Assembly: GCF_001457595.1 (NCBI RefSeq)
Contig: NZ_LN831039.1
Span: 5,880,001-5,912,000 of the forward strand
Source of the DNA: Mycolicibacterium smegmatis
GTDB lineage: Bacteria > Actinomycetota > Actinomycetes > Mycobacteriales > Mycobacteriaceae
Direction: 5' to 3'
Length of the DNA: 32,000 nucleotides
Each line of letters begins with the position of its first letter. The first letter of the stretch is position 1. Made by a program: the position numbers and the translations under genes. Of the stretch, positions 574 to 27,750 are shown piece after piece. The notes under the pieces are model-generated. The model worked only from the letters and a program-made list of their open reading frames with translations. It had not been told where the DNA came from and did not search any database.

Positions 574-642
574 CCGCCCCCAGATATGGGGCGGCCCCCG
601 AGCCGTTGTTCCTGGTTGGACTGACCAAGGGGCTCGGGGGCC
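574..642. terminator. two adjacent GC-rich hairpins between convergent genes (candidate bidirectional terminator without U-tract)
   Basis: CCGCCCC (574-580) pairs with GGGGCGG (588-594) around a 7-nt loop. The perfect 12-bp stem GGCCCCCGAGCC (593-604) pairs with GGCTCGGGGGCC (631-642), with an inner TTGG/CCAA mini-stem. Confidence 0.45.
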
Positions 643-812
643 GGGTGGCTGCGGGGAATTCGCCAGCGCGCGCGGGCTATTCTCCCGGCGCTGCTAGCGG
701 GCAGCCACCTCACATGTCCATAAGTCACTCAATTTGTCGGACCACCTCCTTCCCTGTGTAAAGGCGAAGGTACCCGCGTGAGCTGCGCCCTTCAAGCTAT
801 TTTCTCCAATGC

Positions 813-9013: not shown

Positions 9014-10333
9014 GTGACGAGCCAACTCTCCGAGAAACCGACGACCGATCCCCCGCAGCGATGGTCGACCGCCACGAAGGTCGCATTCCGTTTCTGCTTC
9101 GTCTATTTCGGCCTGTTCTGCCTGGTGTTCGCCCAGATCCTGTTCGTGTTCACCGGTTTCCTCGGCCATTGGCTGCCCGACCGGGCGATCCTGTGGCAGA
9201 TGGTGATGCTGGACCCGTTGCTCGGCTGGGTGGGGCGCACGGTGTTCGGCGTCGACGCCACGCTGAACCTCGACTCGGGCAGCGGTGATCAGCTGGTCAT
9301 CTGGCTGCTGGTGTTCTGCCTGTTCACGCTGGCGGTCGTCGCCACCGTCATCTGGTCGGTACTCGACCGCGCCAGGGCCGACTACACGCGGCTGTGGGCA
9401 TGGTTCCTGACGTTTCTGCGCCTGTGCGTGGCCGGGCAGATGCTGTTCTACGGGATCGCCAAGCTCATCCCCACGCAGATGCCCGCGCCCGGCCTGGCGA
9501 CGCTGCTGCGGCCCTACGGCGAGTTCAGCCCCGCGTCGGTGCTGTGGCTGCAGGTGGGCAGCTCCTACCCCTACGAGATGGCGCTGGGGGCCGTCGAGGT
9601 GCTGGCCGGGATCCTGCTGTTCGTGCCGAGGACCGCGACGTTGGGCGCGCTCGTCGGCCTGGTCAGCATGGCGCAGGTGTTCCTGCTGAACATGACGTTC
9701 GACGTGCCCGTCAAGATCCTGTCGGGACACCTGCTGCTGATGAGTTTCGTGCTGCTCGCACCGCAGGTGCGGCGCCTGGTGGACCTGTTCGTGCTGCAGC
9801 GTCCCGTGGGCCCGCTGAGCCAGCCGGAACTGTTCGACGATCCCCGGTCACGCAGGATCTCGACGCGGGTTCAGGCCGTGCTCGGCGTGTGGGCGTTGAT
9901 CGGCTGTGTCGTGATCACCGGCAGCGGGTGGTTCGAGTACGGCGGCGGGCGCGACAAGCATGAGCTGTACGGCATCTGGGCGGTAAGCGAGTTCGTCGTC
10001 GACGGCAAGCCGCTGCCGCCGTTGACCACGGACCAAACGCGCTGGAAGCACGTTGTTTTCGACGAGCCGGGCGTACTGACCTATCAACGCATGGACGGTG
10101 CACTGGTGCCCGCTCCTGCCGAGTTCGACGATGGCACCATCGCGGTGTCCGATGACCAGGGGGGCACGGTCGCCGATTTCCGTGTGTCACGGCCCGATCC
10201 GCAGCACCTCGAACTCGATGGCCGCCTGGCGGGCCGCCCGGCGCACATCACCCTGGAGGAGGTCGACCCGAACGGGTTCACGCTGCGCAACCGCGGTTTC
10301 CACTGGGTGCAGGAGTACCCGTACTTCCGCTGA
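9014..10333 (+). CDS. polytopic membrane protein, DoxX-like N-terminal region plus a soluble C-terminal domain of about 130 aa
   Basis: 439 aa with several hydrophobic helices (FRFCFVYFGLFCLVF, LFYGIAKLIP). The hydrophilic C-terminus ends RGFHWVQEYPYFR. Family assignment is from memory only. Confidence 0.65.
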   Translation: MTSQLSEKPTTDPPQRWSTATKVAFRFCFVYFGLFCLVFAQILFVFTGFLGHWLPDRAILWQMVMLDPLLGWVGRTVFGVDATLNLDSGSGDQLVIWLLVFCLFTLAVVATVIWSVLDRARADYTRLWAWFLTFLRLCVAGQMLFYGIAKLIPTQMPAPGLATLLRPYGEFSPASVLWLQVGSSYPYEMALGAVEVLAGILLFVPRTATLGALVGLVSMAQVFLLNMTFDVPVKILSGHLLLMSFVLLAPQVRRLVDLFVLQRPVGPLSQPELFDDPRSRRISTRVQAVLGVWALIGCVVITGSGWFEYGGGRDKHELYGIWAVSEFVVDGKPLPPLTTDQTRWKHVVFDEPGVLTYQRMDGALVPAPAEFDDGTIAVSDDQGGTVADFRVSRPDPQHLELDGRLAGRPAHITLEEVDPNGFTLRNRGFHWVQEYPYFR

Positions 10334-11964: not shown

Positions 11965-11986
11965 GACCTCAACTTTCGTTGAGGTC
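11965..11986 (+). terminator. perfect 9-bp hairpin after the mce stop
   Basis: GACCTCAAC-tttc-GTTGAGGTC, 4 nt after TGA (11958-11960). No U-tract. Confidence 0.5.
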
Positions 11987-11999
11987 CTACCGTGGCGGC

Positions 12000-12422
12000 A
12001 TGACGTTCAAACCCCACGAGATCGCCTACCTGCAAGCCGCCGACCTGGGTCGACTGGCAACCCTCCAGCCCGACGGCACACCCCAGAACAGCCCGGTGGG
12101 ATTCACCTTCAACGAACAGCTCGGCACGATCGACATCGCCGGATATCGCATGTCGCAGAGCCAGAAGTACCGCAACATCGCGCGCAACAACCGGGTCGCG
12201 TTCGTGGTCGACGACATCTTCTCGCGCGATCCCTGGCGCGTGCGCTGTCTCGAGATCCGCGGCACCGCAGAACAAGTGATGACCTCGGGGGCGATGGGCG
12301 CCGCCGGCGACGAACTGGACGCCGCGATCATCCGGATCACGCCGCGCCGCATCATCAGCTTCGGCATCGACGACCAGGAAACTCCGCCGCACCAACTCAA
12401 AGCGGATATACGAACGGTCTGA
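12000..12422 (+). CDS. PPOX-class (pyridoxamine 5'-phosphate oxidase fold) probable F420-dependent oxidoreductase
   Basis: 140 aa from MTFKPHEIAYLQAADLGRLATLQPDGTPQNSPV...SQKYRNIARNNRVAFVVDD, a typical FDOR/PPOX signature. The track TTG start at 11979 lies inside the hairpin, so I trimmed to ATG 12000. Confidence 0.8.
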   Translation: MTFKPHEIAYLQAADLGRLATLQPDGTPQNSPVGFTFNEQLGTIDIAGYRMSQSQKYRNIARNNRVAFVVDDIFSRDPWRVRCLEIRGTAEQVMTSGAMGAAGDELDAAIIRITPRRIISFGIDDQETPPHQLKADIRTV

Positions 12423-12442: not shown

Positions 12443-12874
12443 ATGGGGGGAATTCTGCGGCCCCGTGCGGTCGCCACCGGCGTCGCGGTGATGGTGGTGC
12501 TGTCCGGATGCCAACCGTTCGGCGCCGATCACGACGCCGAACGCTTCGTCAGACCGGGCGCACCCAAGGTGTCCCCGTCGAACATCTACACCGCCACGGT
12601 GGAACGAGGACCGCAACCCGACGGTGCCGAGACCTGGGTGGCGGTGATCATCGACGAATCGGGCGCCGAGGTGTTCCACGACGACCACGCGTTCGGCGCC
12701 GGACGCGAGACGCGCATCACGTGGTTGTCCAACGAAGACCAATTATGGCTGCTGTCACGCGAAGTGGGCTCGGCCCACGTCGACCGTAACCCCGACGGCC
12801 GATGGGTGAAGACCACGGTCTCCCCGGATGCCGACAGCGTGCCCGACGAGATCCGGGAGCTGCTCGATGCCTAG
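12443..12874 (+). CDS. lipoprotein of unknown function
   Basis: 143 aa from MGGILRPRAVATGVAVMVVLSGC (lipobox LSGC). This is the tail of track ORF 11801-12874, trimmed to Met215. Confidence 0.65.
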   Translation: MGGILRPRAVATGVAVMVVLSGCQPFGADHDAERFVRPGAPKVSPSNIYTATVERGPQPDGAETWVAVIIDESGAEVFHDDHAFGAGRETRITWLSNEDQLWLLSREVGSAHVDRNPDGRWVKTTVSPDADSVPDEIRELLDA

Positions 12875-14159
12875 ACGACCCACCGCCGGTGCGGTGCCCA
12901 TGACCAAGTCCGCGAGGGCAGCGGCCAGGTCGGCCGCCGCGGACCATGCGCCGCCGGTGCCGATGTGGTGCGCGGTCGGCCTGTCCCTCGCGATGATCGG
13001 ATCCGCGGCCTTCAACGGCGTCGGCGTCCTGTGCGCGACGGTTCTCGTGGCGGTGGTGATCGTCGCGCTGACGCGCCTGCACGCCAGCGCCGCAGGTGCG
13101 GCCACCACATCGGAACTGCTGGGGTCGGTGCTCGGGCCGGTGTCCGCGCGGTTCACCGGGCTGGTGCAGCTTGCGGCGTACGCCGCCCTTGGTGTGGGCG
13201 CGGCGGTGTCGCTGGGGCTGCAGCCGTTGGGCATGGCGGGCGTGGACCCGGAAACCGTCTTGACCAGCTGGCTTTGGCCGATGTGGGCCGGCATCGGGGT
13301 CATCGTCGCAGGCACGCTCGTGGCGGTGCTGCCGACCAGGACGGTCATGGCGGCCGTCGCGGTGCTGGCCGGCCTGGGGTTGCTGGCGTACTTCTATCTG
13401 GCGCTCGCTGTCATCGCCAAGATGGCCTCGGGCAGCCCGCAGGTCATGGGCGGCACCGAGAGCATCTCGACCGTCGACATGCTGGCCGCTGCCCTGCCAC
13501 TCGGTCTCAGCCTGTTCGGCTTCGAGGCCCCCACCGCCGCCTCGGATCGGCTGCGCTCGGTCGCACGACCGCTTGGTGTTGCGGTCGGCATCACCGCGGT
13601 GTGTGCGGTGGTACTGCTGGTCGCGGTGAACCTGTCGACGATCGCCGGTTTCAGCCACCGCGCCACCGACCTTCCCCTGATCGTGCCTGAACTGTTCGGC
13701 GACATGGGCAGACAGAGCCTGAACCTGGCGTCGGCGCTGCTCGGGGTCGCCGTGGTGCTGGCCACCATGTGGGCTGCCACGCGCGTCGCCGCGCGGTTGT
13801 TCGGCGGCGGCGTGGTGACCGCGGTTTCGGTGCCCGCGGTGATGTGTGTTCTCACGGTGGTGGCGTGCCGGTTCCCCGAGGACATCGGCGAACTGCTGTT
13901 CGTCGTGCCGGCACTGCTGCTGTTCGTGGTGTACGTGGCTGTCGGGGAGGCGAATGCCCGGGTCGCGGGTTCCCCGGTCGCCATGCAGCTTCCGCGTGCA
14001 GTACTGGTCGTGGTGTTGCTCGCCGTCCTGTTGATCTCGGTGCGCGAAGGCTATTTCATCCTGGGGTCGATCTGGCCGCTGCTCGTGGCGGCCGTGATCA
14101 CTGCGGCCGCGGCGATTTTCGCGCGTACCACACCGCGGCCAGCGCACCCGCCTCGTTGA
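12867..14159 (+). CDS. polytopic permease, APC/amino-acid-transporter-like
   Basis: About 430 aa with about 12 hydrophobic segments. ATG 12867 overlaps the lipoprotein stop (ATGCCTAG); ATG 12900 is an alternative start. The opposite-strand 490-aa ORF is Arg/His-rich nonsense. Confidence 0.65.
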   Translation: MPRRPTAGAVPMTKSARAAARSAAADHAPPVPMWCAVGLSLAMIGSAAFNGVGVLCATVLVAVVIVALTRLHASAAGAATTSELLGSVLGPVSARFTGLVQLAAYAALGVGAAVSLGLQPLGMAGVDPETVLTSWLWPMWAGIGVIVAGTLVAVLPTRTVMAAVAVLAGLGLLAYFYLALAVIAKMASGSPQVMGGTESISTVDMLAAALPLGLSLFGFEAPTAASDRLRSVARPLGVAVGITAVCAVVLLVAVNLSTIAGFSHRATDLPLIVPELFGDMGRQSLNLASALLGVAVVLATMWAATRVAARLFGGGVVTAVSVPAVMCVLTVVACRFPEDIGELLFVVPALLLFVVYVAVGEANARVAGSPVAMQLPRAVLVVVLLAVLLISVREGYFILGSIWPLLVAAVITAAAAIFARTTPRPAHPPR

Positions 14160-14754: not shown

Positions 14755-16484
14755 CAGTATTCGGGTCCGTCGTTGGCGGCAGTCTTCTGCAGCGCCATAC
14801 GGATGCGTTCGGTGTCCTCAGGTGTCCAACCGTCCGGCGGCGCCACGGCGGCCCAGCCGTCGAGCACCGATTCGCCGTAGTTGTGGCCGTGGCCCGCGGG
14901 CACGCTCGACGCGTTGGTCATGTCGGCGGCCACCTGCCAGAACGTGATGATGGGATACCACCGCATGGACGCGGTGCGGTCGCCACCGGGCGGTTCCACG
15001 AGCCAGTCGGGCCGGGAGAACAGCAGATCTGTCGACCACCACACGATCGGGTCGGAGGGGTGCTGCAGGAACAGTACGCGGGTGCCCTCCCACGGTTCGG
15101 CGGTGTCCCTTGCGATCTGGGCGGGGTCGGCGGCCTCGGAGAACCGGACGGTGCGGCCGTTGTCGTAGCGCGGACGCACCTCGGGTGTGCCCGGGTCGCG
15201 GCGCACTGTCAGCCCGTGCCACAGCGGGCTCGCGTTGGGCGGCCCGACCCACAGCACCGAGGAGAACCCCTTGCGCGCGATGTCGGGCAGCCAGGAGAAC
15301 GCACCCTGGCCCGCCATCGAGCCCAGGCTCTCTCCGTAGAGCACGAGTTCGGGCCTGCGGTCGGGAGGTAGTGCCTCCCAACGGGACTGGATCGCGTCGA
15401 TCATCAGGCGCCCGGTGTGCATGGATATCTCGCGGTCGCCCAGAAACGAGATCCAGCTCGGCAGATACGAATACTGCATGCCCACCGTCGCGGTGTCACC
15501 GTTGTACATCAGCTCGATCGCACGCGCGGCCACGGGGTTGACCCATCCGGTTCCCGTGGTCGGCACGATCACCAGCACTTCCCGGTCGAACGCATGGGTG
15601 CGCTCAAGTTCACTGAGCAGCAACGAGATCCGCTGTTCCTCGGTATCGGCGCTCTGCAGCCCCACGTAGACGCGGATCGGTTCGCGGGCCGGCCGCCCGT
15701 TGACCTCTTCGAGTTCACCCGCACGGGGTCCGGTCGCGACGAAGTTGCGACCCTGGTATCCGAGTGTGTCCCACGGCGCGAAAGATTCCGGGCTACCGGA
15801 TCTTTCGGGCTCGGTCGGCTGACTCACACCTTCTCGGGTGGTCGAGTTCTGCGGCCGGAACACATTGCTGGCGCCCAGCAGGAATCCCCGGTACAGCACG
15901 CCGTTGACCAGGGTCACCACCAGCACCACCACGACCACGGTGCCGATGAACTGCGCGACCTCGCGGTGCAGATGCAGTCGGCGGATCAGCACCTTCGCGA
16001 CCTGGCGCACAGCATCACGCAGCACCCGCGCCGTCGCGATCAGCGCGCCCGCGACGGCGGCCGCGAGAACCGCGGTGCGCAGGTATCCCGGTGTCGCAGG
16101 GCCTTCCATGCCCATGAGCGCCGAGACCTGACGCTGCCAGGCCGCGGCGGGGATCAGCATCAGCACACACGACGCGATGGAACCACCGACGATCAACGTC
16201 TTGGCCCACAGCAGCACCCAGTTGGGCGGGGGCCACCACGTGCGGTTGCGAAGCGCGAAGCGGTACATCGCCTTCCCGAGCACCACGCCAAGGCCGTAGC
16301 CGATCGCGGCGTTGACACCGCCGATCAGACCGGCGAACAACCAGTCACGCGGCAGCAGCGACGGCGTCAGCGAAAGGCAGAAAAACAGCGCGCCGACGGC
16401 GACGCCCGCGAAGTCCAGCCGCAGCAGGCTCCAGGCCCAGCGCAGCAGAGGATGACGAAGGGTGTGTGAGTTCTCCTCGATCAC
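14754..16484 (-). CDS. membrane-anchored alpha/beta-hydrolase (Abhydrolase_9-like)
   Basis: 576 aa from the GTG that overlaps the purL stop (GTGA). About 4 N-terminal TM helices, then a hydrolase domain with nucleophile elbow GESLG. The track ORF is trimmed at Val86. Confidence 0.8.
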
Positions 16485-18778
16485 CCGAACAGCCTGGGCA
16501 GCACGCCCTCCGACGTGCTCCGCAGCTCGGACAGCGCAACGCTGAACTGGTCCTGGACCTCGACCGAATCGCTTCCCTGATCGACGACGCCGACGCGGGT
16601 GACGGGAAGTCCCCTGGCCTCGCACATCGACCGGAAACGGCTCTCCTCGGTGCGCGGCACCGCCACCAGCACGCGACCCGACGACTCGGAGAACAGGAAG
16701 ACGAAGGGGTCGGCCCCTTCGGGAATGATGATCCGGCACCCGGTTTCACCCGCGAGCGCGGATTCCACGACAGCCTGGATCAGCCCGCCCTCGGACAGGT
16801 CGTGCGCCGCGGAGATCAGGCCGTCGCGCGAGGCCGCGGTGAGCACCTCGGCCAGCAGCTTCTCGCGGTCCAGGTCCACCTTGGGCGGTACGCCACCGAG
16901 GTGGTCGGCGGTGACCTGCGCCCAGATGGACCCGTCGAACTCGTCGTGGGTGTCGCCGAGCAGCAGCAGCGTCTCGCCGGGTTCGGTGCCCAGCCCCGTG
17001 GGGATCCGGCGCTTCACGTCGTCGATCACACCGAGCACGCCGACCACGGGGGTCGGCAGGATCGGGGTGCTGCCGGTCTGGTTGTAGAAGCTGACGTTGC
17101 CGCCGGTGACCGGGATGCCAAGCGCGGCACAGCCGTCGGCCAGCCCGCGCACGGCCTGGCTGAACTGCCACATCACACCGGGATCCTCGGGCGAGCCGAA
17201 GTTGAGGCAGTTGGTCACCGCGACCGGGGTGGCGCCGGTGACCGCGACGTTGCGGTAGGCCTCGGCCAGCGCAAGCTGGGCGCCGGTGTACGGGTCGAGC
17301 TGCGTGTAGCGACCCGACGCGTCGGTGGACACCGCGATACCGCGGCCCGTGTTCTCGTCGATGCGCAGCACACCGCCGTCGGCGTGTTCGGCCAGCACGG
17401 TGTTGCCGCGCACGTAGCGGTCGTACTGCTCGGTGATGAACGCGCGGCTGCACAGGTGCGGGCTGCCCAGCAGCGTGAGCAGCGTCTCCTTGAGTTCGTC
17501 GCCGGTGGAGGGGCGCGGCAGCTTCGCCGAGGTGTCGGCGATCAGCGCGTCCTGGCTCTCGGGCCGCTCGACCGGCCGCTCGTACACCGGGCCCTCGTGC
17601 GCCACGGTGCGCGGCGGCACGTCGACGACGGTCTCGCCGTGCCACGTGATCTGCAAGTGGTCGCCGTCGGTGACCTCGCCGATGACGGTGGCCAGCACCT
17701 CCCACTTGCGGCACACCGCGAGGAACGCGTCGACGTTCTCCGGCGTCACCACCGCGCACATACGTTCCTGGGACTCGCTCGACAGCACCTCGGCCGGGGT
17801 CATGTTGGCCGCGCGCAGCGGCACCTTGTCCAGCTCGATGTGCATGCCGCCGTCACCGGCGGATGCGAGTTCCGAGGTGGCACAGGACAATCCGGCGCCG
17901 CCGAGGTCCTGGATGCCCACCACCAGGCCGGCCGAGTACAGCTCGAGGCAGCACTCGATGAGCACCTTCTCCATGAAGGGGTCGCCGACCTGCACCGAGG
18001 GCAGCTTCTTGCGGCCGGGGCCGGAACCCTCGTCGCCGCCGAAGGTCTCCGACGCCAGCACCGACACACCGCCGATGCCGTCGAGACCCGTGCGCGCACC
18101 GAACAGGATGATCTTGTTACCGGTTCCGGACGCGAACGCCAGATGCAGGTCCTCCTTGCGCAGCGCGCCCACGCACAGCGCGTTGACCAGGGGGTTGCCC
18201 GCGTACGACGCGTCGAACACGGTCTCGCCACCGATGTTCGGCAGGCCCAGGGAGTTGCCGTAGCCGCCGACACCGCGCACCACGCCGTCGAGCACACGCC
18301 GGGTGTCGGGGGCGTCGGCCGGACCGAACCGCAGCTGGTCCATCACCGCGACCGGTCGGGCGCCCATCGCCATGATGTCGCGGACGATGCCGCCGACGCC
18401 GGTGGCCGCACCCTGGTAGGGCTCGACGTAGGACGGGTGGTTGTGCGATTCGACCTTGAAGGTGACGGCCCAGCCGTCGCCGATGTCGACGACGCCTGCG
18501 TTCTCGCCGATACCGGCGAGCATGCCCGCGCGCATCTTCTCGGTGGTGGTCTCCCCGAAGTAGCGCAGGTGCACCTTGGAGGACTTGTAGGAGCAGTGCT
18601 CACTCCACATCACCGAGTACATCGCGAGTTCCGCATCGGTGGGGCGCCTGCCCAGGATGTCGCGAATCCGCTGGTACTCGTCGTCCTTGAGACCGAGTTC
18701 GCGGTAGGGCTGGGGCTGATCGGGGGTGGCGGCTGCCCGCTCAACGGTATCTGTCTGGTGAGTGAGCTCCGACGTCAC
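16481..18778 (-). CDS. purL: phosphoribosylformylglycinamidine synthase subunit PurL
   Basis: 765 aa with unambiguous PurL homology ([28 protein letters not shown]). Confidence 0.97.
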
Positions 18779-19983
18779 GAGGACAGTTTAGTTTGTTGCC
18801 TCTGGTAGGCGCGGGCAGCCGCAGGTGCGCCGACGCCGTGCAGCACGACGCTGCCCAGAACCGACACCACCAGAACCATCGCGACCGTGCTCTCCGCCAC
18901 ACCGTCGAGCGCGTTGAACGCCAGCAGACCGAACACGATCGACGTGGTGCCGCGGGGCCCGAGCCAGCCCAGCAGCAGGCGTTCGGGCCAGCTCACGGGC
19001 GAGAAGAGAAGCGCCAGCAGCACCGGGACGATGCGCACGACGGTCAGCGCGAGCAGGCAGAACGCCACCAGCCCGAGCGGCACGCCGGAGCCGAGTGCGA
19101 GCACCGCGGTCAACCCGAACACGAACCACATGAGCGCCGTCATGAGGAAGCCCACATCGTCGACGAGCTCGAGTTCGGTGTGGAACTGCTCCGAACGGCG
19201 GAAGTAGTTGAACGCGATGCCGCACACGAACGCCGCGACGAAGCCGTTTCCGCCGATCGCGAGGCTCGCGCCGAACGACAGCAGCGGCGCGGCCACCAGG
19301 ATCATGCGCTTGGCCTGCGCGGTCATGAAGTCGCGTCGCTCGGCGGCGTTGGCGGCCAGCGCCAGACCCGCGCCGACCACGACGCCCGCGATCAGGGCCT
19401 TGACGGCCTCGGGCACCGCGGCGCCGAGCGCCTCCATGGGCGTCGACGCGTGCTCGCTGTCAGCAGCCAGCACCAGCGCGAAGATGAACACCGGCGACAC
19501 GATGCCGTCGTTGTAGCCGGCCTCCACGTTGAGCAGTCCGCGCACGCGTTCGGGGATCCGCGTGTCGCGCAGCAGCGCCGAGTTGGGTGCGAAGTCGATC
19601 GGCACCACGATGCACGCGACGGCCAGCAGCACCGCCCACGGCAGCCCGGGCAGCAACCAAAGCCCCAGCAGCACCGACAGCGCCAGCCCCACCGGCATCG
19701 CGATGAACAGCATCCGCAACGCCGCCTTGGGTTGGGCGCCGAGGAAGCCGCCTCGGACGTCGGTCGCGTCGACGAACAGCAGCACCGCCAGGATGAGTTC
19801 GGCGATATGTTCGGCGCTGTCGGTGTTCAGCGTGACGCCGAGGTGGTCCTTCATCGTGAAACTGATGGCCATGCCGGTGAGCACCAGCACCATCGGCGCC
19901 GTGAGCCGCAGGCGCTGCATCTCGCGCGACAGCAGGGACCACACGGCGAGCACCACGGAGATCGCGATCAGCGACAGCAACAC
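18775..19983 (-). CDS. cation:proton antiporter (Na+/H+ exchanger, CPA1-like)
   Basis: 402 aa, highly hydrophobic with 10-12 helices and exchanger-like motifs ([14 protein letters not shown]). The stop overlaps the purL GTG (GTGA). Confidence 0.8.
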
Positions 19984-19989
19984 GAGGAA

Positions 19990-19995
19990 ATCATT
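19990..19995 (-). promoter_or_regulatory. -10-like AATGAT with upstream TG, 6 nt before the antiporter GTG (leaderless-type)
   Basis: Minus strand reads TGCAATGATttcctcGTG. Same 6-nt geometry as at ygfZ, mce and dyp. Confidence 0.3.
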
Positions 19996-20044
19996 GCAGC
20001 CGTCGCACAGGTTTCCCCGGTGGCGACGCGGGTACCACCGCCAG

Positions 20045-21835
20045 ATGAGTCAGACAGTCGCCGAATATGTTCTCCAACGTCTCCGCGAGTGGAATGTGGA
20101 GCAGGTGTTCGGCTATCCGGGTGACGGCATCAACGGGCTGATCGCAGCGTTCGGCAAGGACGAGTCAGCGGGTCCGCGCTTCGTGCAGACCCGGCACGAG
20201 GAGATGGCCGCGCTCGCCGCGACGGGCTACGCCAAGTTCTCCGGCAACGTCGGCGTGTGCATCGCGACGTCGGGTCCGGGTGCCATCCATCTGCTCAACG
20301 GCCTCTACGACGCCAAGCTCGACCACACCCCGGTCGTGGCGATCGTCGGCCAGACGGCCCGCAGCGCGATGGGCGGCAGCTATCAGCAGGAAGTGGATCT
20401 GCAGGCGCTGTTCTCGGATGTCGCCAGCGACTACCTGGTGGAGGTCAACGTCGCGGGTCAGCTGCCCAACGCGCTCGACCGCGCGTTCCGGACCGCGCGC
20501 GCACGCCGCGCGCCCACCGCGGTGGTGATCCCCTCGGATCTGCAGGAGCAGCCGTACGAGCCGCCCGGACACGCGTTCAAGCAGGTGCCGTCGAGCGCGC
20601 CGCACGACGCCGAACCGGTGCTCTCACCGGATCCCGCGGCGCTGCAGGACGCCGCCGACGTGCTCAACGCGGGCTCGAAGGTCGCGATCCTCATCGGGCA
20701 GGGCGCCCGCGGAGCCGCCGACGAGGTCACGCAGGTGACCGATCTGCTCGGCGCGGGTGTCGCCAAGGCGCTGCTGGGCAAGGACGTGCTGCCCGACGAC
20801 CTGCCGTACGTCACGGGTTCGATCGGTCTGTTGGGCACACGGCCGAGCTATGAGCTGATGCGCGACTGCGACACGCTGCTGATCGTCGGCACCAACTTCC
20901 CCTACAGCCAGTTCCTGCCGGACTACGGGCAGGCCCGCGCGGTGCAGATCGACATCGACGGCGCCAACATCGGGATGCGCTACCCCACCGAGGTCAACAT
21001 CGTCGCGGACGCGAAAACCGCTCTCGCGCAACTGGTCCCGCTGCTCGAACGCAAGGACGACCGGTCCTGGCAGCAGTCCCTCGAGAAGGGGGTCGCGCAG
21101 TGGTGGGAGACCGTCGAGCGTCAGTCGATGCTCAAGGCCGATCCGGTCAACCCGATGCGGGTGGTCTGGGAACTGTCGTCGCGGCTGCCCGAATACGCCA
21201 TGGTCGCGGGCGATTCGGGTTCGTCGACCAACTGGTACGCGCGGTGCCTGAAGTTCACGTCCACCACCCGTGGTTCCCTGTCGGGCACGTTGGCGACGAT
21301 GGGGTCGGCCGTGCCGTACGCGATCGGCGCGAAGTTCGCGCAACCCGACCGCCCGGTGATCGCGTTGGTGGGCGACGGTGCGATGCAGATGAACGGCCTC
21401 GCCGAACTGCTCACCATCCGCCGGTACGCGCACCTGTGGGCCGATCCGCGAATGGTGATCTGCGTGTTCCACAACAACGACCTCGCGCATGTCACGTGGG
21501 AACTGCGCGCGATGGGTGGTGCCCCCAAGTTCGAGGGCTCGCAGAGCCTGCCCGAGGTGTCCTATGCCGACGTGGCACGCGTGATGGGGCTGCGGTGCAT
21601 CACGGTCGACGATCCCGAGCAGATCGGCGCGGCGTGGGACGACGCTCTGTCGGCCGACGAGCCCGTGTTGCTCGACGTCCACACCGACCCCGAGGTGCCG
21701 CCCATCCCGCCGCACGTCACCTACGAGCAGATGAAGGCCACCGCGCAGGCGTTCGTGAAGGACCCCAACGGGTGGCACCTGTTCGCCGAGATCGCGAAGA
21801 ACAAAGCGGCCGAACTGCTTCCGAACCGGCGGTAG
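20045..21835 (+). CDS. thiamine-pyrophosphate enzyme, pyruvate oxidase / pyruvate:quinone oxidoreductase-like (PoxB/Pqo family)
   Basis: 596 aa from MSQTVAEYVLQRLREWNVEQVFGYPGDGINGL. TPP motif GDGAMQMNG...NND. The track ORF is trimmed to Met173. Confidence 0.85.
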   Translation: MSQTVAEYVLQRLREWNVEQVFGYPGDGINGLIAAFGKDESAGPRFVQTRHEEMAALAATGYAKFSGNVGVCIATSGPGAIHLLNGLYDAKLDHTPVVAIVGQTARSAMGGSYQQEVDLQALFSDVASDYLVEVNVAGQLPNALDRAFRTARARRAPTAVVIPSDLQEQPYEPPGHAFKQVPSSAPHDAEPVLSPDPAALQDAADVLNAGSKVAILIGQGARGAADEVTQVTDLLGAGVAKALLGKDVLPDDLPYVTGSIGLLGTRPSYELMRDCDTLLIVGTNFPYSQFLPDYGQARAVQIDIDGANIGMRYPTEVNIVADAKTALAQLVPLLERKDDRSWQQSLEKGVAQWWETVERQSMLKADPVNPMRVVWELSSRLPEYAMVAGDSGSSTNWYARCLKFTSTTRGSLSGTLATMGSAVPYAIGAKFAQPDRPVIALVGDGAMQMNGLAELLTIRRYAHLWADPRMVICVFHNNDLAHVTWELRAMGGAPKFEGSQSLPEVSYADVARVMGLRCITVDDPEQIGAAWDDALSADEPVLLDVHTDPEVPPIPPHVTYEQMKATAQAFVKDPNGWHLFAEIAKNKAAELLPNRR

Positions 21836-22211: not shown

Positions 22212-23477
22212 TCACGCCGGTGACAAGAACGCCTGCAGCGCCGCCGAGTACGCCGCGACGTCATGCGCGCCCATGAACTCGCGCGCCGAGTGCATCGCGA
22301 GTTGCGCCGCGCCGACGTCGACCGTGGGGATTCCGGTGCGCGCGGCGGTCATCGGCCCGATCGTCGACCCGCACGGCAGATCGGCGCGGTGCTCATAACG
22401 CTGCAGCGGCACGCCGGCCTGATCGCATGCGAGCGCGAACGCGGCCGCGGTGCGCCCGTCGGTCGCGTAGCGCAGGTTGGGCTGCACCTTCAGCACGGGC
22501 CCGGCGTTGACCTCGATGAGGTGGCCGGGTTCGTGGCGCTCCGGGTAGTTGGGGTGTGTCGCGTGCGCCATGTCGCCCGAGGCGACCATCGAACCGGCCA
22601 CGCGGCGCAGGAAGTCCTCGCGGCTCTGTCCGGCGGCGAGCGCGATGCGCTCAAGCACAGTGGGCAACAGTTCGGACTGCGCACCGTGATCGGACTGCGA
22701 GCCGACCTCCTCGTGGTCGAACAGCGCCAGCACGGGTAGGTACCCGGACTCTTCTGCGGCGAGGAACGCCTCCAGCCCCGCGTAGCACGTGGCCTGGTTG
22801 TCGAGCCGCGGTGCGCTGACGAACTCCCCGGCCGCGCCGGTGACCGCCGAGGGCGCGAGGTCGTGGGTCATCAGGTCGAAGCCGAGTACGTCGGCGGCGT
22901 CGACACCGGCGCGGTCGGCGACGAACTCGATGAACACACCGGGCCGCTCCCCCAGGCCCCACACACCGTTGAGGTGTCGCTGCGGATCCGGGCTGACCCC
23001 CTTGCGGTCATCGGACAGATGGATGGCCAGCTGCGGCACCCGCAGAATCGGATCGTCTATCCGCACCAGGTGGTGCGCGATGCCGTCGTCCGCGCTCTCG
23101 TCGCGCAGCGTCAGCCTGCCGCTGATCCCGAGGTCGCGGTCCAGCCACGAGTTCAGCCAGGCCCCGCCGTAGGGCTGCAGCGCGACCACCTGCCAGCCTG
23201 CGACCATGCGGTCGGGACGCTGCTTGACCCGCAGGTTGGGGCTGTCGGTGTGACCTCCGACGATGCGGAACGGTGCGCCGGTGTCTTCGACGGTCCGCCA
23301 GGCCACCAGCGATCCGGCCCGCACGGTGAAGAACCTGCCCGACGCGGGCCATGCGTCCGTTTCGGCAAGCTCGGTGTAGCCCGCGTCGCGCAGCCGCGCG
23401 GCCGCGGTGGCGCACACATGGAACGGCGACGGCGACGCGTCGATGAACTCACACAAGCTGTGGGGGCTGGCTGGCAT
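22212..23477 (-). CDS. pepC: M18-family aspartyl aminopeptidase
   Basis: 421 aa with M18 features ([30 protein letters not shown]). Corresponds to Rv0800 by synteny, from memory. Confidence 0.9.
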
Positions 23478-23514
23478 ATCTCTATCTTGGCCGTGATTTC
23501 CCGCCGCGCCGCGT

Positions 23515-23520
23515 TAGGGT
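23515..23520 (+). promoter_or_regulatory. -10 box TAGGGT, 6 nt upstream of the DyP GTG (leaderless-type)
   Basis: TANNNT hexamer, then ccattt, then GTG at 23527. No SD sequence. Confidence 0.35.
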
Positions 23521-23526
23521 CCATTT

Positions 23527-24558
23527 GTGCCCGCACCACAGCCTCAGCCGGTTCTCGCCCCACTGACCCCGGCTGCCGTCTTCCTGGTTGCGACCATCGA
23601 CCAAGGCCAGGAGGCGACAGTCCACGACGCGCTGCCCGACATCTCGGGTCTGGTCCGCGCCATCGGCTTCCGTGACCCCGCCAAGCGACTCTCGGCGATC
23701 ACCTCGATCGGATCCGATGCATGGGACCGGTTGTTCAGCGGCCCACGCCCGGCCGAACTGCATCCGTTCCGCGAGATCGACGGTGGACGCCACCACGCGC
23801 CCGCGACGCCGGGCGATCTGCTGTTCCACCTGCGCGCCGAGTCCATGGACGTGTGTTTCGAACTGGCGACCAAGCTCGTCGAGGCCATGTCCGGGGCGAT
23901 CACGATCGTCGACGAGACGCACGGATTCAAGTTCTTCGACAACCGTGACCTCATGGGGTTCGTCGACGGCACCGAGAACCCGGACGGCAACCTCGCGGTC
24001 GTCGCGACCCAGATCGGCGACGAGGACCCGGATTTCGCCGGCGGCTGCTACGTGCACGTGCAGAAGTACCTGCACGACATGGCTTCCTGGAACTCGCTGT
24101 CCGTCGAGGAGCAGGAACGCGTGATCGGCCGCACCAAGCTCGACGACATCGAGTTGGACGACGACGTCAAACCCGCCAATTCGCATGTGGCGCTCAACGT
24201 CATCGAGGACGAGGACGGCAACGAGCTCAAGATCATCCGGCACAACATGCCGTTCGGCGAGATCGGCAAGGGCGAGTTCGGTACGTACTACATCGGTTAC
24301 TCGCGCACACCCAGCGTCACCGAGCGCATGCTCGACAACATGTTCATCGGTGATCCGCCGGGCAACACCGACCGCATCCTGGATTTCTCCACCGCCATCA
24401 CCGGCGGGCTGTTCTTCACCCCCACCGTCGACTTCCTCGACGACCCACCACCTCTTCCGTCGGAGGACGACCGTGCCGAACCGGCTTCGGCGCCTTCGGC
24501 CGACCCGGTCCACACCGACGGCTCACTCGGAATCGGCAGCCTGAAAGGAACCCGCTGA
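23527..24558 (+). CDS. DyP-type haem peroxidase carrying a C-terminal encapsulin cargo-loading peptide
   Basis: 343 aa with a DyP core (FVDGTENP, HNMPFG). A Pro/Ala/Ser-rich linker is followed by the terminal DGSLGIGSLKGTR, which matches the family-1 targeting-peptide consensus. Confidence 0.92.
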   Translation: MPAPQPQPVLAPLTPAAVFLVATIDQGQEATVHDALPDISGLVRAIGFRDPAKRLSAITSIGSDAWDRLFSGPRPAELHPFREIDGGRHHAPATPGDLLFHLRAESMDVCFELATKLVEAMSGAITIVDETHGFKFFDNRDLMGFVDGTENPDGNLAVVATQIGDEDPDFAGGCYVHVQKYLHDMASWNSLSVEEQERVIGRTKLDDIELDDDVKPANSHVALNVIEDEDGNELKIIRHNMPFGEIGKGEFGTYYIGYSRTPSVTERMLDNMFIGDPPGNTDRILDFSTAITGGLFFTPTVDFLDDPPPLPSEDDRAEPASAPSADPVHTDGSLGIGSLKGTR

Positions 24559-25355
24559 TGAACAACCTCTATCGCGACCTCGCCCCGATCACCGAATCCG
24601 CTTGGGCCGAGATCGAACTGGAGGCGACCCGCACGTTCAAGCGTCACATCGCCGGACGCCGGGTGGTCGACGTCAGCGGGCCCAACGGTCCGACGACCGC
24701 GAGCGTCAGCACGGGTCATCTGCTCGACGTGAGCCCGCCCGGCGACGGCGTCATCGCGCATCTTCGCGATGCCAAACCGCTCGTGCGCCTGCGGGTGCCG
24801 TTCACGGTGGCGCGCAGGGACATCGACGACGTCGAGCGCGGCTCGCAGGACTCCGACTGGGATCCGGTCAAGGACGCCGCCAAGAAGCTCGCGTTCGTCG
24901 AGGACCGCGCGATCTTCGAGGGCTATGCCGCCGCGTCGATCGAGGGCATCCGCAGTTCCAGCTCCAACCCCGCGCTCGCACTGCCCGACGACGCCCGCGA
25001 GATCCCCGACGTGATCGCCCAGGCCCTCTCCGAGCTGCGTCTGGCCGGTGTCGACGGGCCCTACTCGGTGCTGCTCTCGGCCGAGACCTACACCAAGGTC
25101 AGCGAGACCACCGCACACGGATATCCGATCCGCGAGCACATCAACCGCCTCGTCGACGGTGAGATCATCTGGGCGCCCGCGATCGACGGTGCGTTCGTGT
25201 TGTCAACGCGCGGCGGTGATTTCGACCTGCAGCTCGGCACCGACGTGTCCATCGGCTACCTGTCCCATGACGCCGAGGTGGTCCACCTCTACATGGAGGA
25301 GACCATGACGTTCCTGTGCTACACCGCTGAGGCCTCTGTCGCGCTGACCCCCTGA
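24558..25355 (+). CDS. family 1 encapsulin shell protein (linocin M18 / Cfp29-like, HK97 fold)
   Basis: 265 aa. The N-terminus MNNLYRDLAPITESAWAEIELEATRTFKRHIAGRRVVDV is nearly identical to what I recall of M. tuberculosis Cfp29. Its ATG shares 1 nt with the DyP TGA (TGATG). Confidence 0.95.
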   Translation: MNNLYRDLAPITESAWAEIELEATRTFKRHIAGRRVVDVSGPNGPTTASVSTGHLLDVSPPGDGVIAHLRDAKPLVRLRVPFTVARRDIDDVERGSQDSDWDPVKDAAKKLAFVEDRAIFEGYAAASIEGIRSSSSNPALALPDDAREIPDVIAQALSELRLAGVDGPYSVLLSAETYTKVSETTAHGYPIREHINRLVDGEIIWAPAIDGAFVLSTRGGDFDLQLGTDVSIGYLSHDAEVVHLYMEETMTFLCYTAEASVALTP

Positions 25356-25380
25356 CCCCGTAGCGGGTCACCCCGCACCG

Positions 25381-25439
25381 CGAGCGTGCGTGTCTGCCGC
25401 CCGGCACACCGCGAATCAGCAGCAGTCGGCGCACGCTCG
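25381..25439. terminator. 10-bp inverted repeat with a nested hairpin between convergent encapsulin and purQ
   Basis: CGAGCGTGCG (25381-25390) pairs with CGCACGCTCG (25430-25439). The loop contains a GTG..TGCC/GGCA..CAC stem. No U-tract. Confidence 0.4.
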
Positions 25440-25490
25440 TGGATGGCGAGAGTGCGCAGAGTGCTCAGCTCGGCGGACTCAGAAGCGAAA

Positions 25491-26165
25491 TCAGACCGAC
25501 AGGATGGCGTCGAGCGCGGAGTAGAACAGGCCCAGTCCGTCGTCGGACGGTCCGGTCAACGCCTCGGTGGCGTGTTCGGGATGCGGCATGAGGCCGACGA
25601 CGCGGCGATTCTCCGAGCAGATGCCCGCGATGTCGCGCATCGACCCGTTGAGGTTCTCGCGATAGCGGAAGACCACGCGGTCCTCGCCCTCGAGTTCGTC
25701 GAGCACGGACTCGGACGCCACGTAGCGCCCCTCGCCGGACTTCAGCGGGATCAGCAGGTCGGCACCGGTCTCGTAGCGCGTGGTCCACGCCGAGGTGTTG
25801 GACGCCACTTCGAGCCACACGTCGCGGCAGACGAAGTGCAGACCCGCGTTGCGGGTCAGCGCGCCGGGCAGCAGGCCGGCCTCGCACAGCACCTGGAAGC
25901 CGTTGCAGATGCCGAGCACGGGCATGCCCTTGTTGGCGGCCTCGACCACCGAGCCCATCACGGGCGCGAACTTCGCGATGGCGCCGCACCGCAGGTAGTC
26001 CCCGTAGGAGAAACCGCCGGGCACCACGACCGCGTCGACGCCGTGCAGATCCGCGTCGGCGTGCCACAGGCTCACGGCCTCAGCACCCGCCAGACGGACC
26101 GCGCGGGCCGCGTCGATGTCGTCCAGCGTGCCGGGGAACGTGATCACGCCCACACGAGTGGTCAT
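25491..26165 (-). CDS. purQ: phosphoribosylformylglycinamidine synthase glutaminase subunit PurQ
   Basis: 224 aa. Catalytic GICNGFQ and MPHPEHA motifs. 4-nt overlap with purS. Confidence 0.95.
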
Positions 26166-26411: not shown

Positions 26412-27080
26412 CTACCGGCACGATCCCAGGTAGGCGTCACACAGTGGTGCGGCCATCGCGTCGAGCACCTGGCTATCGGCCACCGACGGCCACGGCACCT
26501 GCGGCGGGGTCGTCGACCACAGCGCGAGCTCCACGACGGTGCTGTTGTTGGGGTCGGCGAGCAAATACTGGCGCAGAACCCGGTCGCCGAACGCGATCAC
26601 CGCGGCCAGCCGGCCCGGCTCGTCGGTGGTGAGTGACGGTGAGCTGTCGGGCGCCACCAGCTGACACGCCCGGATCGCGGCGGCCGACGCGGTCACGGCC
26701 TCCATCGCGAGCTGCCCGCCCCGCCAGGTCTCACCACGCCAGTGGATGATCTGCGCGGAGAGCTGCCACTGCCCCACCGGCCGGTCCACCTCGGCCCGCG
26801 CGCTCACCGCATAGTGCCGCGGATCGTCGGGCAGCAGCGGCAGCGCGCACTCCTGTTCGAACCGGAACCGCGGCGACACCGTCGTCACGGCCAGACCCGC
26901 CAACCGGGGCCAGCGGTACTCGCGGTACAGCGGGATCTCGGTGGCGGCGATCCACGCCGAATCCGGGATGCGGTCGCACATCGGCGGGCAGTTCATGGGC
27001 GCGGCCCCGGCCGGCACAGCAACCAGTGTCGTGGCCGCCAGCCCCGCCGCGGCGAGCAACGTTGCCCAGATCAACCGCAT
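26412..27080 (-). CDS. secreted Cys-containing protein of unknown function (possibly a PknH_C-like sensor domain)
   Basis: 222 aa from MRLIWATLLAAAGLAATTLVAVPAGAAP (signal peptide). 6 Cys in the mature part. RBS GGGAGGA lies 3 nt before the ATG. The domain guess has low confidence. Confidence 0.6.
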   Translation of the reverse strand: MRLIWATLLAAAGLAATTLVAVPAGAAPMNCPPMCDRIPDSAWIAATEIPLYREYRWPRLAGLAVTTVSPRFRFEQECALPLLPDDPRHYAVSARAEVDRPVGQWQLSAQIIHWRGETWRGGQLAMEAVTASAAAIRACQLVAPDSSPSLTTDEPGRLAAVIAFGDRVLRQYLLADPNNSTVVELALWSTTPPQVPWPSVADSQVLDAMAAPLCDAYLGSCR

Positions 27081-27111
27081 GAATCCTCCCACCGAGGGCA
27101 ACAATATAGAG

Positions 27112-27750
27112 ATGCAACTGACCCATTTCGGACATTCGTGCCTTTTGGCCACCATTTCCGATACGACGGTGTTGTTCGACCCCGGCAACTTCTCGCACGG
27201 TTTCGAGGGCATCACCGGGCTGTCGGCGATCCTGATCACCCATCAGCACCCCGATCACGCCGACACGACGCGTCTGCCCGCGCTGCTCGACGCGAACCCG
27301 CAGGCGAAGCTGTACGCCGATCCGCAGACGGCGGCGCAACTCGGTGAGCCGTGGACCGCAGTGCACGTCGGTGACGAGTTCACCATCGGCTCGATCAACG
27401 TCCGCGGTGTCGGCGGCAAGCACGCCGTCATCCACCCGGAAATCCCTGTCATCGACAACATCTCGTACCTGCTCGGTGACGACGAGCATCCGGCCCGGTT
27501 CATGCATCCGGGTGATGCATTGTTCGTCCCAGGCGAACCGGTCGACGTGCTCGCGACGCCTGCGGCCGCGCCGTGGATGAAAGTGTCTGAGGCCGTGGAC
27601 TATCTGCGTGCCGTCGCACCGCGCGCCGCGGTGCCGATCCATCAGGGCATCATCGCCCCGGACGCGCGCGGCGTCTTCTACGGGCGCCTGTCGGAGATGA
27701 CGTCGACGGATTTCCAGGTGCTGCAGGAGGAGAACGGCACCGAGGTCTGA
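27112..27750 (+). CDS. MBL-fold metallo-hydrolase
   Basis: 212 aa from MQLTHFGHSCLL, with the THQHPDH metal motif. The track ORF is trimmed to Met58. Confidence 0.85.
   Translation: MQLTHFGHSCLLATISDTTVLFDPGNFSHGFEGITGLSAILITHQHPDHADTTRLPALLDANPQAKLYADPQTAAQLGEPWTAVHVGDEFTIGSINVRGVGGKHAVIHPEIPVIDNISYLLGDDEHPARFMHPGDALFVPGEPVDVLATPAAAPWMKVSEAVDYLRAVAPRAAVPIHQGIIAPDARGVFYGRLSEMTSTDFQVLQEENGTEV

Follow-up and report, generated by a model that had tools for sequence, protein, structure and literature searches.

The DyP peroxidase-encapsulin operon of a Mycolicibacterium smegmatis strain, with targeting-peptide codons that may double as a ribosome-binding site for the encapsulin gene

Encapsulin compartments are protein organelles already known to shield mycobacteria from peroxide, and the two-gene system in which a dye-decolorizing peroxidase (DyP) is paired with an encapsulin is well studied. 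In M. smegmatis mc2155 (MSMEG_5829/MSMEG_5830; PDB 7BOJ and 7BOK; PMC8072242, PMC8244302), the natively loaded particle has been purified and its structure solved by cryo-EM (Tang et al. 2021, PMC8072242). The shell protein has an HK97 gp5-type fold with an A-domain, a P-domain and an E-loop, and 60 copies of it form a closed T=1 icosahedron. The native particle carries 12 DyP molecules per shell, with a single hexamer in 26% of the particles, and the targeting peptide itself is not resolved in the map (Tang et al. 2021, PMC8072242). An independent study arrived at a ratio of 10:1 and found DyP to be the main native cargo. Among the remaining M. smegmatis proteins, only BfrB is reported to have a comparable tail.

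Two further systems bear closely on the locus described here. In M. tuberculosis, Cfp29 (Rv0798c) and DyP (Rv0799c) are encoded by a two-gene operon with a stop/start overlap and the shell has the same T=1 architecture and HK97 fold (PMC8635971, PMC11676171). The DyP C-terminal peptide ends in SLSIGSLKGS, and structure 9BKX shows it bound to the shell (PMC11676171). The system, orthologous to that of M. smegmatis, confers protection from peroxide at low pH (Lien et al. 2021, PMC8635971), and it is already known to affect survival in macrophages and susceptibility to pyrazinamide; the oxidative-stress and pyrazinamide phenotypes are results for M. tuberculosis and not for M. smegmatis (PMC8635971). 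The DyP encapsulin of K. pneumoniae (PDB 8U50/8U51; Jones et al. 2024, PMC10960027) is likewise a family 1 shell with a DyP hexamer as cargo. In its peptide, modelled as SGSLNIGSLK, the Leu, Ile, Gly, Leu and Lys residues are each essential for loading, whereas the residue that follows the Lys is of little importance (PMC10960027).

The stretch of DNA analysed here (the window) is 32 kb long. We have very little doubt that it contains the MSMEG_5829-5830 operon of an M. smegmatis strain other than mc2155, and that this operon encodes a family 1 encapsulin nanocompartment whose core cargo is a DyP haem peroxidase; we met no evidence that contradicts the identification. The first gene (23527-24558, + strand) starts with GTG and encodes a B-type dye-decolorizing haem peroxidase of 343 residues, the orthologue of MSMEG_5829. 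Both ferredoxin-like domains, N- and C-terminal, are present (Dyp_perox_N PF04261, 2e-34; Dyp_perox_C PF20628, 1.7e-61), and the match to TIGR01413 scores 286 bits against a cutoff of 100.5. The GXXDG motif reads G144-F-V-D147-G148, with D147 as the catalytic Asp, and the distal Arg, R238, is also in place together with the proximal His, H220, the haem ligand of M. smegmatis DyP (Tang et al. 2021, PMC8072242). The protein has the length, linker and targeting peptide of its mc2155 counterpart and is identical to 7BOK at 340 of the 343 positions. The three differences (Q26 for E, H33 for Y and K135 for R) mark it as the allele of another strain.

The second gene (24558-25355, + strand) encodes the family 1 encapsulin shell protein Cfp29 (MSMEG_5830; 265 residues). 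The Linocin_M18 profile PF04454 covers residues 1-251 of 265 (6e-96) with no additional fused domain, and the equivalog NF041155, 'family 1 encapsulin nanocompartment shell protein', covers residues 4-263 with 343 bits against a cutoff of 100. The protein is identical to PDB 7BOJ at 265 of 265 positions, and its HK97 fold follows from this identity to an experimentally solved structure. Exact-protein look-ups led to M. smegmatis entries for both, annotated as a Dyp-type peroxidase and as a family 1 encapsulin shell protein. The operon features discussed below were compared over 79 related loci. Among the locus matches listed, the closest is that of M. wolinskyi (97%), and there is no 100% match among the 80 loci listed.

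These results bear out a preliminary description of the locus, made from the DNA letters, which had expected the two genes to match the Dyp_perox and encapsulin profiles and the shell to have the HK97 fold; what it said of the open reading frames, linker, peptide, junction, promoter hexamer and neighbours holds throughout, positions included. It was also right that the family is described in mycobacteria, but this understates the case, as the M. smegmatis operon itself has yielded a natively purified and solved particle. Of the questions that it regarded as open, cargo-to-shell stoichiometry and the leaderless start have largely been answered in print, and that of other cargo has been answered in part.

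The two domains of DyP are followed by a flexible linker (residues 304-330; 24436-24516, + strand) that contains 7 Pro, 5 Asp, 4 Ala and 3 Ser in its 27 residues. Residues 307-330, encoded at 24445-24516, read PPPLPSEDDRAEPASAPSADPVHT; this is the segment previously called Pro/Ala/Ser-rich, an apt term to which Asp can be added. The sequence and length of the linker vary greatly over the 79 loci, while the flanks on both sides are conserved, and in M. tuberculosis the linker is 11 residues shorter than in M. smegmatis. The protein ends with the targeting (cargo-loading) peptide DGSLGIGSLKGTR (24517-24555, + strand), the core of which, SLGIGSLKG, is encoded at 24523-24549. In the form SL[GAS]IGSLKG this core is near-invariant across the related loci, and the string DGSLGIGSLKG occurs identically in a solved encapsulated ferritin. 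The K. pneumoniae peptide matches DGSLGIGSLK of M. smegmatis, and by sequence L334, I336, G337, L339 and K340 correspond to K. pneumoniae L340, I342, G343, L345 and K346. The near-invariant core and the presence of the residues essential in K. pneumoniae support the earlier assignment of the peptide to the family 1 targeting consensus.

When the whole window was searched in six frames with five targeting-peptide patterns, a single site emerged, 3 codons before the DyP stop, and no other cargo in the window. The match exceeds chance: the sole site in 32 kb lies at the end of a DyP gene that itself abuts an encapsulin gene. On the side of the shell, the putative peptide-binding residues R34, D38, T217 and D229 are present and V230 replaces I230 of K. 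pneumoniae; Arg34, Asp38 and Asp229 are thus shared with that shell, which is the more distant one (332 bits vs 583 for 7BOJ, whose shell is identical). By analogy with the M. tuberculosis and K. pneumoniae structures, we infer that the peptide contacts the shell in M. smegmatis as well. One difference concerns the residue after the targeting Lys, which is Lys in K. pneumoniae and an invariant Gly (GGA) in M. smegmatis. The mycobacterial Gly codon appears to double as part of a ribosome-binding site, as discussed below.

The DyP gene is preceded by the hexamer TAGGGT (23515-23520, + strand), a -10 promoter element of the TANNNT type that occupies positions -12 to -7 from the GTG, leaving a gap of 6 nt. 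About 76 of 78 related loci have TAgggT or TAaggT at -12 or -13 relative to a GTG that is likewise conserved, and the flanking sequences diverge. As the majority of mycobacterial promoters carry a -10 element only, the lack of any match in a sigma-70 consensus promoter scan of 23300-25600 is uninformative. In mc2155, the MSMEG_5829 transcript starts with the G of its GTG codon and has a 5'-UTR of 0 (Li 2017 Table S3), and since the GTG thus coincides with the transcription start, the mRNA is leaderless. The DyP gene has the leaderless layout of mycobacteria, with GTG at a published start site, a TANNNT hexamer and no Shine-Dalgarno sequence. The earlier suggestion of leaderless expression agrees with both the published start site and the conservation of TAGGGT and GTG. 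MSMEG_5829 is absent from the supplements of Shell 2015, in which the rows for Rv0799c are distant start sites. Co-transcription of DyP and encapsulin has been reported by two studies (Li 2017, Martini 2019), and the latter lists 5829-5830 as a high-confidence operon under rules that bar downstream genes with a start site 500 bp or less upstream.

The divergent neighbour of the operon is pepC/apeB (22212-23477, - strand), an M18 aspartyl aminopeptidase orthologous to MSMEG_5828 and not a part of the compartment (Peptidase_M18, 6.7e-139; NF002759, 563 bits). It lies divergently beside DyP in 78 of 79 related loci. The intergenic region of 49 bp (23478-23526) holds both promoters: the published start site of pepC is at its own start codon (5'-UTR 0), 50 bp from that of DyP in mc2155 (Li 2017), and among 78 related loci the distance stays within 42-52 bp in 72. 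On the other side, purQ (25491-26165, - strand; profile matches) is convergent with the shell gene, purS is on the same strand, and purL and purF are more distant, so the operon does sit between pepC and purQ within a purine locus, as had been proposed. In M. tuberculosis pepC (Rv0800) presumably adjoins the Cfp29/DyP operon, and we take about ten genes, an IS element among them, to separate cfp29 from purQ there. The mc2155 locus has the same neighbours, with divergent pepC upstream and convergent purQ/purS downstream. In M. smegmatis gene numbers, the region corresponds to MSMEG_5828 to 5832.

The two genes of the operon meet at TGATG (24556-24560, + strand), where the DyP stop TGA (24556-24558) and the shell ATG (24558-24560) share one base, exactly as first described. 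Of the related loci, 53 have a -4 overlap at this junction, 16 have a -1 overlap and 7 a spacing of 0 to +4. A Shine-Dalgarno sequence of the encapsulin gene, GAAAGGA (24543-24549, + strand), lies 8 nt before the ATG within the Leu-Lys-Gly codons of the targeting peptide, and synonymous-site conservation singles it out. Its reverse complement, TCCTTTC, lies within what we take to be the 3' tail of 16S rRNA. The peptide codons read cTG AAA GGA, with AAA in 79 of 79 loci and GGA in 77 of 79, against codon bias: in the genes of the window, Lys is encoded by AAA in 15% of cases and Gly by GGA in 7%, and elsewhere in the same 69 orthologues, at columns where Lys or Gly is invariant, AAA accounts for 23-35% and GGA for 0-26%. 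The 8-nt spacer is retained despite differences between loci in tail length and type of overlap. The tight coupling of the two genes suggested earlier is hence correct as regards the stop/start overlap, but the shell gene has a conserved Shine-Dalgarno sequence of its own in the peptide codons.

We lean somewhat towards a dual role of the Leu-Lys-Gly codons, which would encode the Lys anchor and at the same time form the shell ribosome-binding site at a fixed distance of 8 nt, and which, together with the leaderless GTG of the cargo gene on the same mRNA, may hard-wire a shell:cargo ratio of 5-10:1; with the same reserve, pepC and DyP may be under joint control of a bidirectional promoter region of about 50 bp and conserved length, in which both published starts are at start codons. 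One promoter gives a bicistronic mRNA beginning with the G of the DyP GTG. The shell would be translated mainly from its own GAAAGGA, with the stop/start overlap as a secondary aid, and a layout in which a leaderless GTG cargo gene shares its mRNA with a Shine-Dalgarno-driven ATG shell gene would produce shell in excess of cargo. Such an excess fits the observed subunit ratio of 5:1 to 10:1. DyP assembles into hexamers, and its SLGIGSLK peptide, on a flexible linker of about 27 residues, would dock in an inward-facing pocket of the shell protein. Because the C-terminal peptide docks there, the hexamers would be enclosed during shell assembly, one or two of them being taken up while 60 shell subunits form the T=1 icosahedron.

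A different origin of the shell excess, which we regard as unlikely, is a second promoter within the DyP linker codons near 24454, so that an encapsulin-only mRNA, and not translation, would supply the surplus. For MSMEG_5830, Li 2017 (Table S3) indeed gives a 5' end at 5897531, situated 104 nt ahead of the ATG, and the operon table of the same study (supplementary file 7) labels this gene an 'alternative' sub-operon. However, the + strand contains no TANNNT hexamer from 24201 to 24560, the mapped base is C and the site falls in the hypervariable linker. Furthermore, the rules by which Martini 2019 called the high-confidence operon exclude a start site so close upstream, and the starts of Li 2017 represent 5'-end enrichment of RNA-seq reads, an approach that in our view does not tell primary ends from processed ones. 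Taken together, these points make a processed end likelier than a promoter. Were this 5' end of MSMEG_5830 genuine, it would offer a further way of making surplus shell.

It is more doubtful still that the shell is translated solely by termination-reinitiation at TGATG, which would impose a strict 1:1 output and leave GAAAGGA conserved merely for the Lys-Gly of the peptide. Stop and start overlap or nearly abut in 76 of 80 loci, and the Lys is indispensable for loading in K. pneumoniae (PMC10960027), both of which such a scheme would explain. Protein-level selection cannot fix synonymous sites, though, and the invariance of AAA-GGA, in genes whose other invariant Lys and Gly codons vary freely, therefore counts against selection on the peptide only; nor does the position after the Lys matter much for K. 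pneumoniae loading (PMC10960027). Two unusual loci are also instructive. In one (L061) the adjacent DyP tail has been lost to an insertion, and in the other (L071) the shell gene is preceded by something other than a DyP tail; AAGGAA or AGGAA is kept in each at the same distance from the ATG. Finally, a 1:1 output does not match the 5:1 to 10:1 composition of the particle. As to the identity of the genes, we give practically no credence to a remnant prophage capsid of the HK97 type beside an EfeB/deferrochelatase-type peroxidase that is free or secreted. Encapsulins and HK97 capsids do share a fold (PMC8072242), and DyP weakly matches TIGR01412, a Tat-substrate deferrochelatase model, but at 47 bits against a cutoff of 428; the shell exceeds the cutoff of the curated family 1 equivalog more than threefold, DyP carries the conserved targeting peptide and there are no phage genes nearby. 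This reading is already refuted by the native structure, as the shell is identical to one purified with DyP inside.

The proposed dual role of the peptide codons has a practical side. Since the ribosome-binding site of the shell is contained in the peptide codons, removal of the last 13 DyP codons would take it away too. Targeting peptides are commonly deleted or recoded in experiments and in engineering, and doing so here would thus alter shell expression as well unless GAAAGGA and its 8-nt spacing were kept. No paper in the literature that we searched brings up both an encapsulin targeting peptide and a Shine-Dalgarno sequence. Over the published work, the comparison of 79 loci adds modestly: a conserved TAGGGT/GTG start, a probable ribosome-binding site in the peptide codons and a compact pepC-DyP promoter region of conserved length.

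Downstream of the operon, the 135-nt gap after the shell gene contains no match in a consensus terminator scan; elsewhere, the scan matched once inside DyP and once inside purQ on the - strand. RNA folding predicts a strong hairpin (25374-25448) between the convergent encapsulin and purQ genes, a candidate terminator that lacks a U-tract; the minimum free energy of 25353-25493 is -69 kcal/mol (z = -3.0). The shell gene is followed by a 21-nt unit, of which the window has one copy. Four assemblies that share this DyP allele were compared; two of them likewise have one copy, and the other two have two or three.

The cargo gene, which encodes a dye-decolorizing haem peroxidase (DyP), runs on the forward strand from a GTG at 23527 to a TGA at 24556-24558 (343 aa), and its translated product ends in ...FLDDPPPLPSEDDRAEPASAPSADPVHT-DGSLGIGSLKGTR. 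The shell gene follows on the same strand from the ATG at 24558 to 25355 (265 aa), and the stop and start share one base in the junction TGATG. The ORF listing and a direct reading of the sequence bear out the preliminary description of both ORFs, the tail, the junction and the upstream TAGGGT. Both ORFs also matched the profiles with which it had proposed to check them. DyP matched Dyp_perox_N (2e-34), Dyp_perox_C (1.7e-61) and TIGR01413, and the shell protein matched Linocin_M18 (6e-96) and the curated equivalog NF041155, 'family 1 encapsulin nanocompartment shell protein', at 343 bits against a cutoff of 100. In a search of solved structures, the shell protein was identical to 7BOJ_A at 265 of 265 positions and DyP to 7BOK_A at 340 of 343 (the differences being Q26/E, H33/Y and K135/R). 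Both structures come from native DyP-loaded encapsulin of M. smegmatis mc2155, in which DyP is named MSMEG_5829 (PMC8072242). By exact sequence, too, both proteins are assigned to M. smegmatis. The DyP allele in the window is a variant other than that of mc2155, and the catalytic residues are present (D147 within a GFVDG motif, His220 as the proximal histidine, and Arg238). The reading of this pair as a DyP/encapsulin nanocompartment operon is correct. It is also a re-identification of an already known system, as structures of these same proteins, isolated in native form, had been determined before. The new residue is small: a dual-coding ribosome-binding site within the targeting peptide and a conserved, compact bidirectional promoter region between DyP and its neighbor pepC.

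Five targeting-peptide patterns, scanned in six frames over all 32 kb, hit a single site, the DyP tail; the match is not due to chance. Among related mycobacterial loci the SL[G/A/S]IGSLKG core is essentially invariant, and both the sequence and the length of the preceding linker are free to vary. The core can be aligned to SGSLNIGSLK, the peptide modelled for K. pneumoniae, in which alanine at any of Leu, Ile, Gly, Leu or Lys abolishes loading (PMC10960027). In the window's shell protein, a sequence check found R34, D38 and D229 of the peptide-binding pocket.

A comparison of 80 related mycobacterial loci (shell identity 86-97%) shows a 4-base overlap of the DyP stop with the shell start in 53 loci, a 1-base overlap in 16, and a spacing of 0 to 4 bases in 7. 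For the Lys-Gly pair of the peptide, 77 of 79 loci use AAA-GGA and the remaining two AAA-GGG; AAA makes up 15% of Lys codons and GGA 7% of Gly codons in the genes of the window. A control from the same phylogeny was taken from 69 DyP orthologues, at further Lys and Gly columns that are likewise invariant: AAA is found in 23-35% at the other three Lys columns and GGA in 0-26% at the other twenty Gly columns. Since AAA-GGA is nearly fixed whereas the control codons vary, selection acts on the nucleotides. In most loci, 8 nt separate GAAAGGA from the shell ATG, despite the differing overlap types and peptide tails (TR, IPQ, TRQ and others). Its reverse complement, TCCTTTC, is contained as a string in the 3' tail of 16S rRNA, CACCTCCTTTCT. 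In locus L061 an insertion sequence separates the two genes, and in locus L071 the contig ends about 100 bp upstream of the shell gene, where the sequence is not a DyP tail; both loci have AAGGAA or AGGAA at the usual distance from the shell ATG. From these sequence comparisons we conclude that the targeting-peptide codons contain a conserved, putative Shine-Dalgarno sequence of the shell gene itself. A Shine-Dalgarno-driven shell gene paired with a leaderless GTG cargo gene would result in an excess of shell over cargo. As a practical warning, a construct lacking the 13 terminal codons of DyP would lose the ribosome-binding site of the shell gene as well.

The L061 insertion, in a metagenome-assembled Mycobacterium genome, carries an IS110-family transposase gene (L061:2543-3820, reverse strand; DEDD_Tnp_IS110, 2.8e-48). 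It directly follows the peptide's AAAGGA, lengthening the DyP tail and leaving AAGGAA before the shell ATG. The M. moriokaense contig (L071:1-101) breaks at about the same place.

The TAGGGT hexamer (23515-23520, forward strand) is located six bases before the DyP GTG. Table S3 of Li 2017, whose column headers were verified for this reading, lists MSMEG_5829 at 5896604..5897635 with a start site at 5896604 and a 5'-UTR length of 0. Co-transcription of 5829 and 5830 is given by Li 2017 and, as operon #250, by Martini 2019. About 76 of 78 related loci retain a GTG start with TAgggT or TAaggT at -12 or -13, and the intergenic sequence around these elements diverges; their conservation amid diverging flanks therefore lends independent support to a leaderless promoter. 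The earlier suggestion of a leaderless operon agrees with these data.

Upstream of DyP and divergent from it lies pepC/apeB, an M18 aminopeptidase gene (22212-23477, reverse strand), whose published start site is its start codon (Li 2017). Two leaderless starts thus face apart across 49 bp (23477-23527; start sites 50 bp apart). pepC is adjacent and divergent in 78 of 79 loci, and the start codons are 42-52 bp apart in 72 of 78. The candidate pepC -10 hexamer, CAAGAT (forward-strand positions 23484-23489), is an imperfect TANNNT. The pepC product and encapsulin are two of four abundant complexes in a stationary-phase M. smegmatis lysate (PMC8244302); co-regulation of pepC and DyP is a lead only.

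An 'alternative' 5' end of MSMEG_5830, reported by Li 2017 at mc2155 position 5897531, 104 nt upstream of the ATG, could mark an internal promoter of the shell gene at about 24454 of the window. However, this position falls within the hypervariable DyP linker codons and its base is C, no TANNNT hexamer was found across 24201-24560, and it follows from the operon rules of Martini 2019 that this study saw no start site at that point. Hence, the 5' end at about 24454 is probably an RNA-processing site, and an internal promoter is a minor alternative.

Cargo-to-shell stoichiometry, previously listed as an open question, is largely answered by published values. The native M. smegmatis particle contains a DyP dodecamer (two hexamers) within a 60-subunit T=1 shell, with a single hexamer in about 26% of particles (PMC8072242); an independent shotgun-EM study gave a 10:1 ratio, or one hexamer per shell (PMC8244302). 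The question of other cargo is answered in part: DyP is the main native cargo in both studies, and localisation sequences in M. smegmatis are found only on DyP and BfrB according to Kirykowicz and Woodward (PMC8244302). In M. tuberculosis, DyP, FolB and BfrB can each be loaded on overexpression in E. coli, and the orthologous system confers protection from H2O2 at low pH and influences how susceptible the cells are to pyrazinamide (PMC8635971).

Downstream of the shell gene, purQ and purS are convergent to it. To place the operon inside the purine locus, as was done originally, is fair, although the pur region is loosely scattered, with purL (16481-18778) and purF (5864-7399) further away and unrelated genes between. 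A match to an MSMEG_5819-named family at 11979-12422 agrees with the mc2155 gene order. As the distance between the encapsulin stop and purQ varies across related loci, from -1 bp to 3.9 kb, and the upstream side is fixed, this junction looks like a recurrent insertion site. In M. tuberculosis the spot downstream of the encapsulin gene holds about ten genes, IS1547 among them. The gap in the window (25356-25490) contains one copy of a 21-nt unit, GGTCACCCCGCACCGCGAGCG, which two further M. smegmatis assemblies with the same DyP allele (L082:4829-5006 and L084:4829-4993) carry two or three times in tandem. This short tandem repeat, polymorphic among strains, lies at the foot of a strong hairpin (MFE -69 kcal/mol, z = -3.0).

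Elsewhere in the window, the ORFs at 9014-10333 (forward), 12828-14159 (forward) and 26412-27239 (reverse) gave no NCBIfam or Pfam match in the profile search and have a good coding signal (third-position GC 0.86-0.90). Because the last of these overlaps the start of a metallo-beta-lactamase-fold gene (26941-27750), the start of one or the other has probably been called wrongly. The longest ORF of a thiamine-pyrophosphate enzyme, the MSMEG_5826 orthologue (19529-21835, forward), overlaps an antiporter gene (18775-19983, reverse) by about 450 bp. Its family match begins at residue 173, and in Li 2017 the MSMEG_5826 start site falls 516 nt into the gene as annotated, which probably puts the true start near 20045. 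The actinobacterial small RNA Ms_IGR-5 (RF02471) has an Rfam match at 586-759 (reverse; 195.5 bits versus a gathering score of 45), directly downstream of an aminodeoxychorismate lyase gene (813-1700, reverse).
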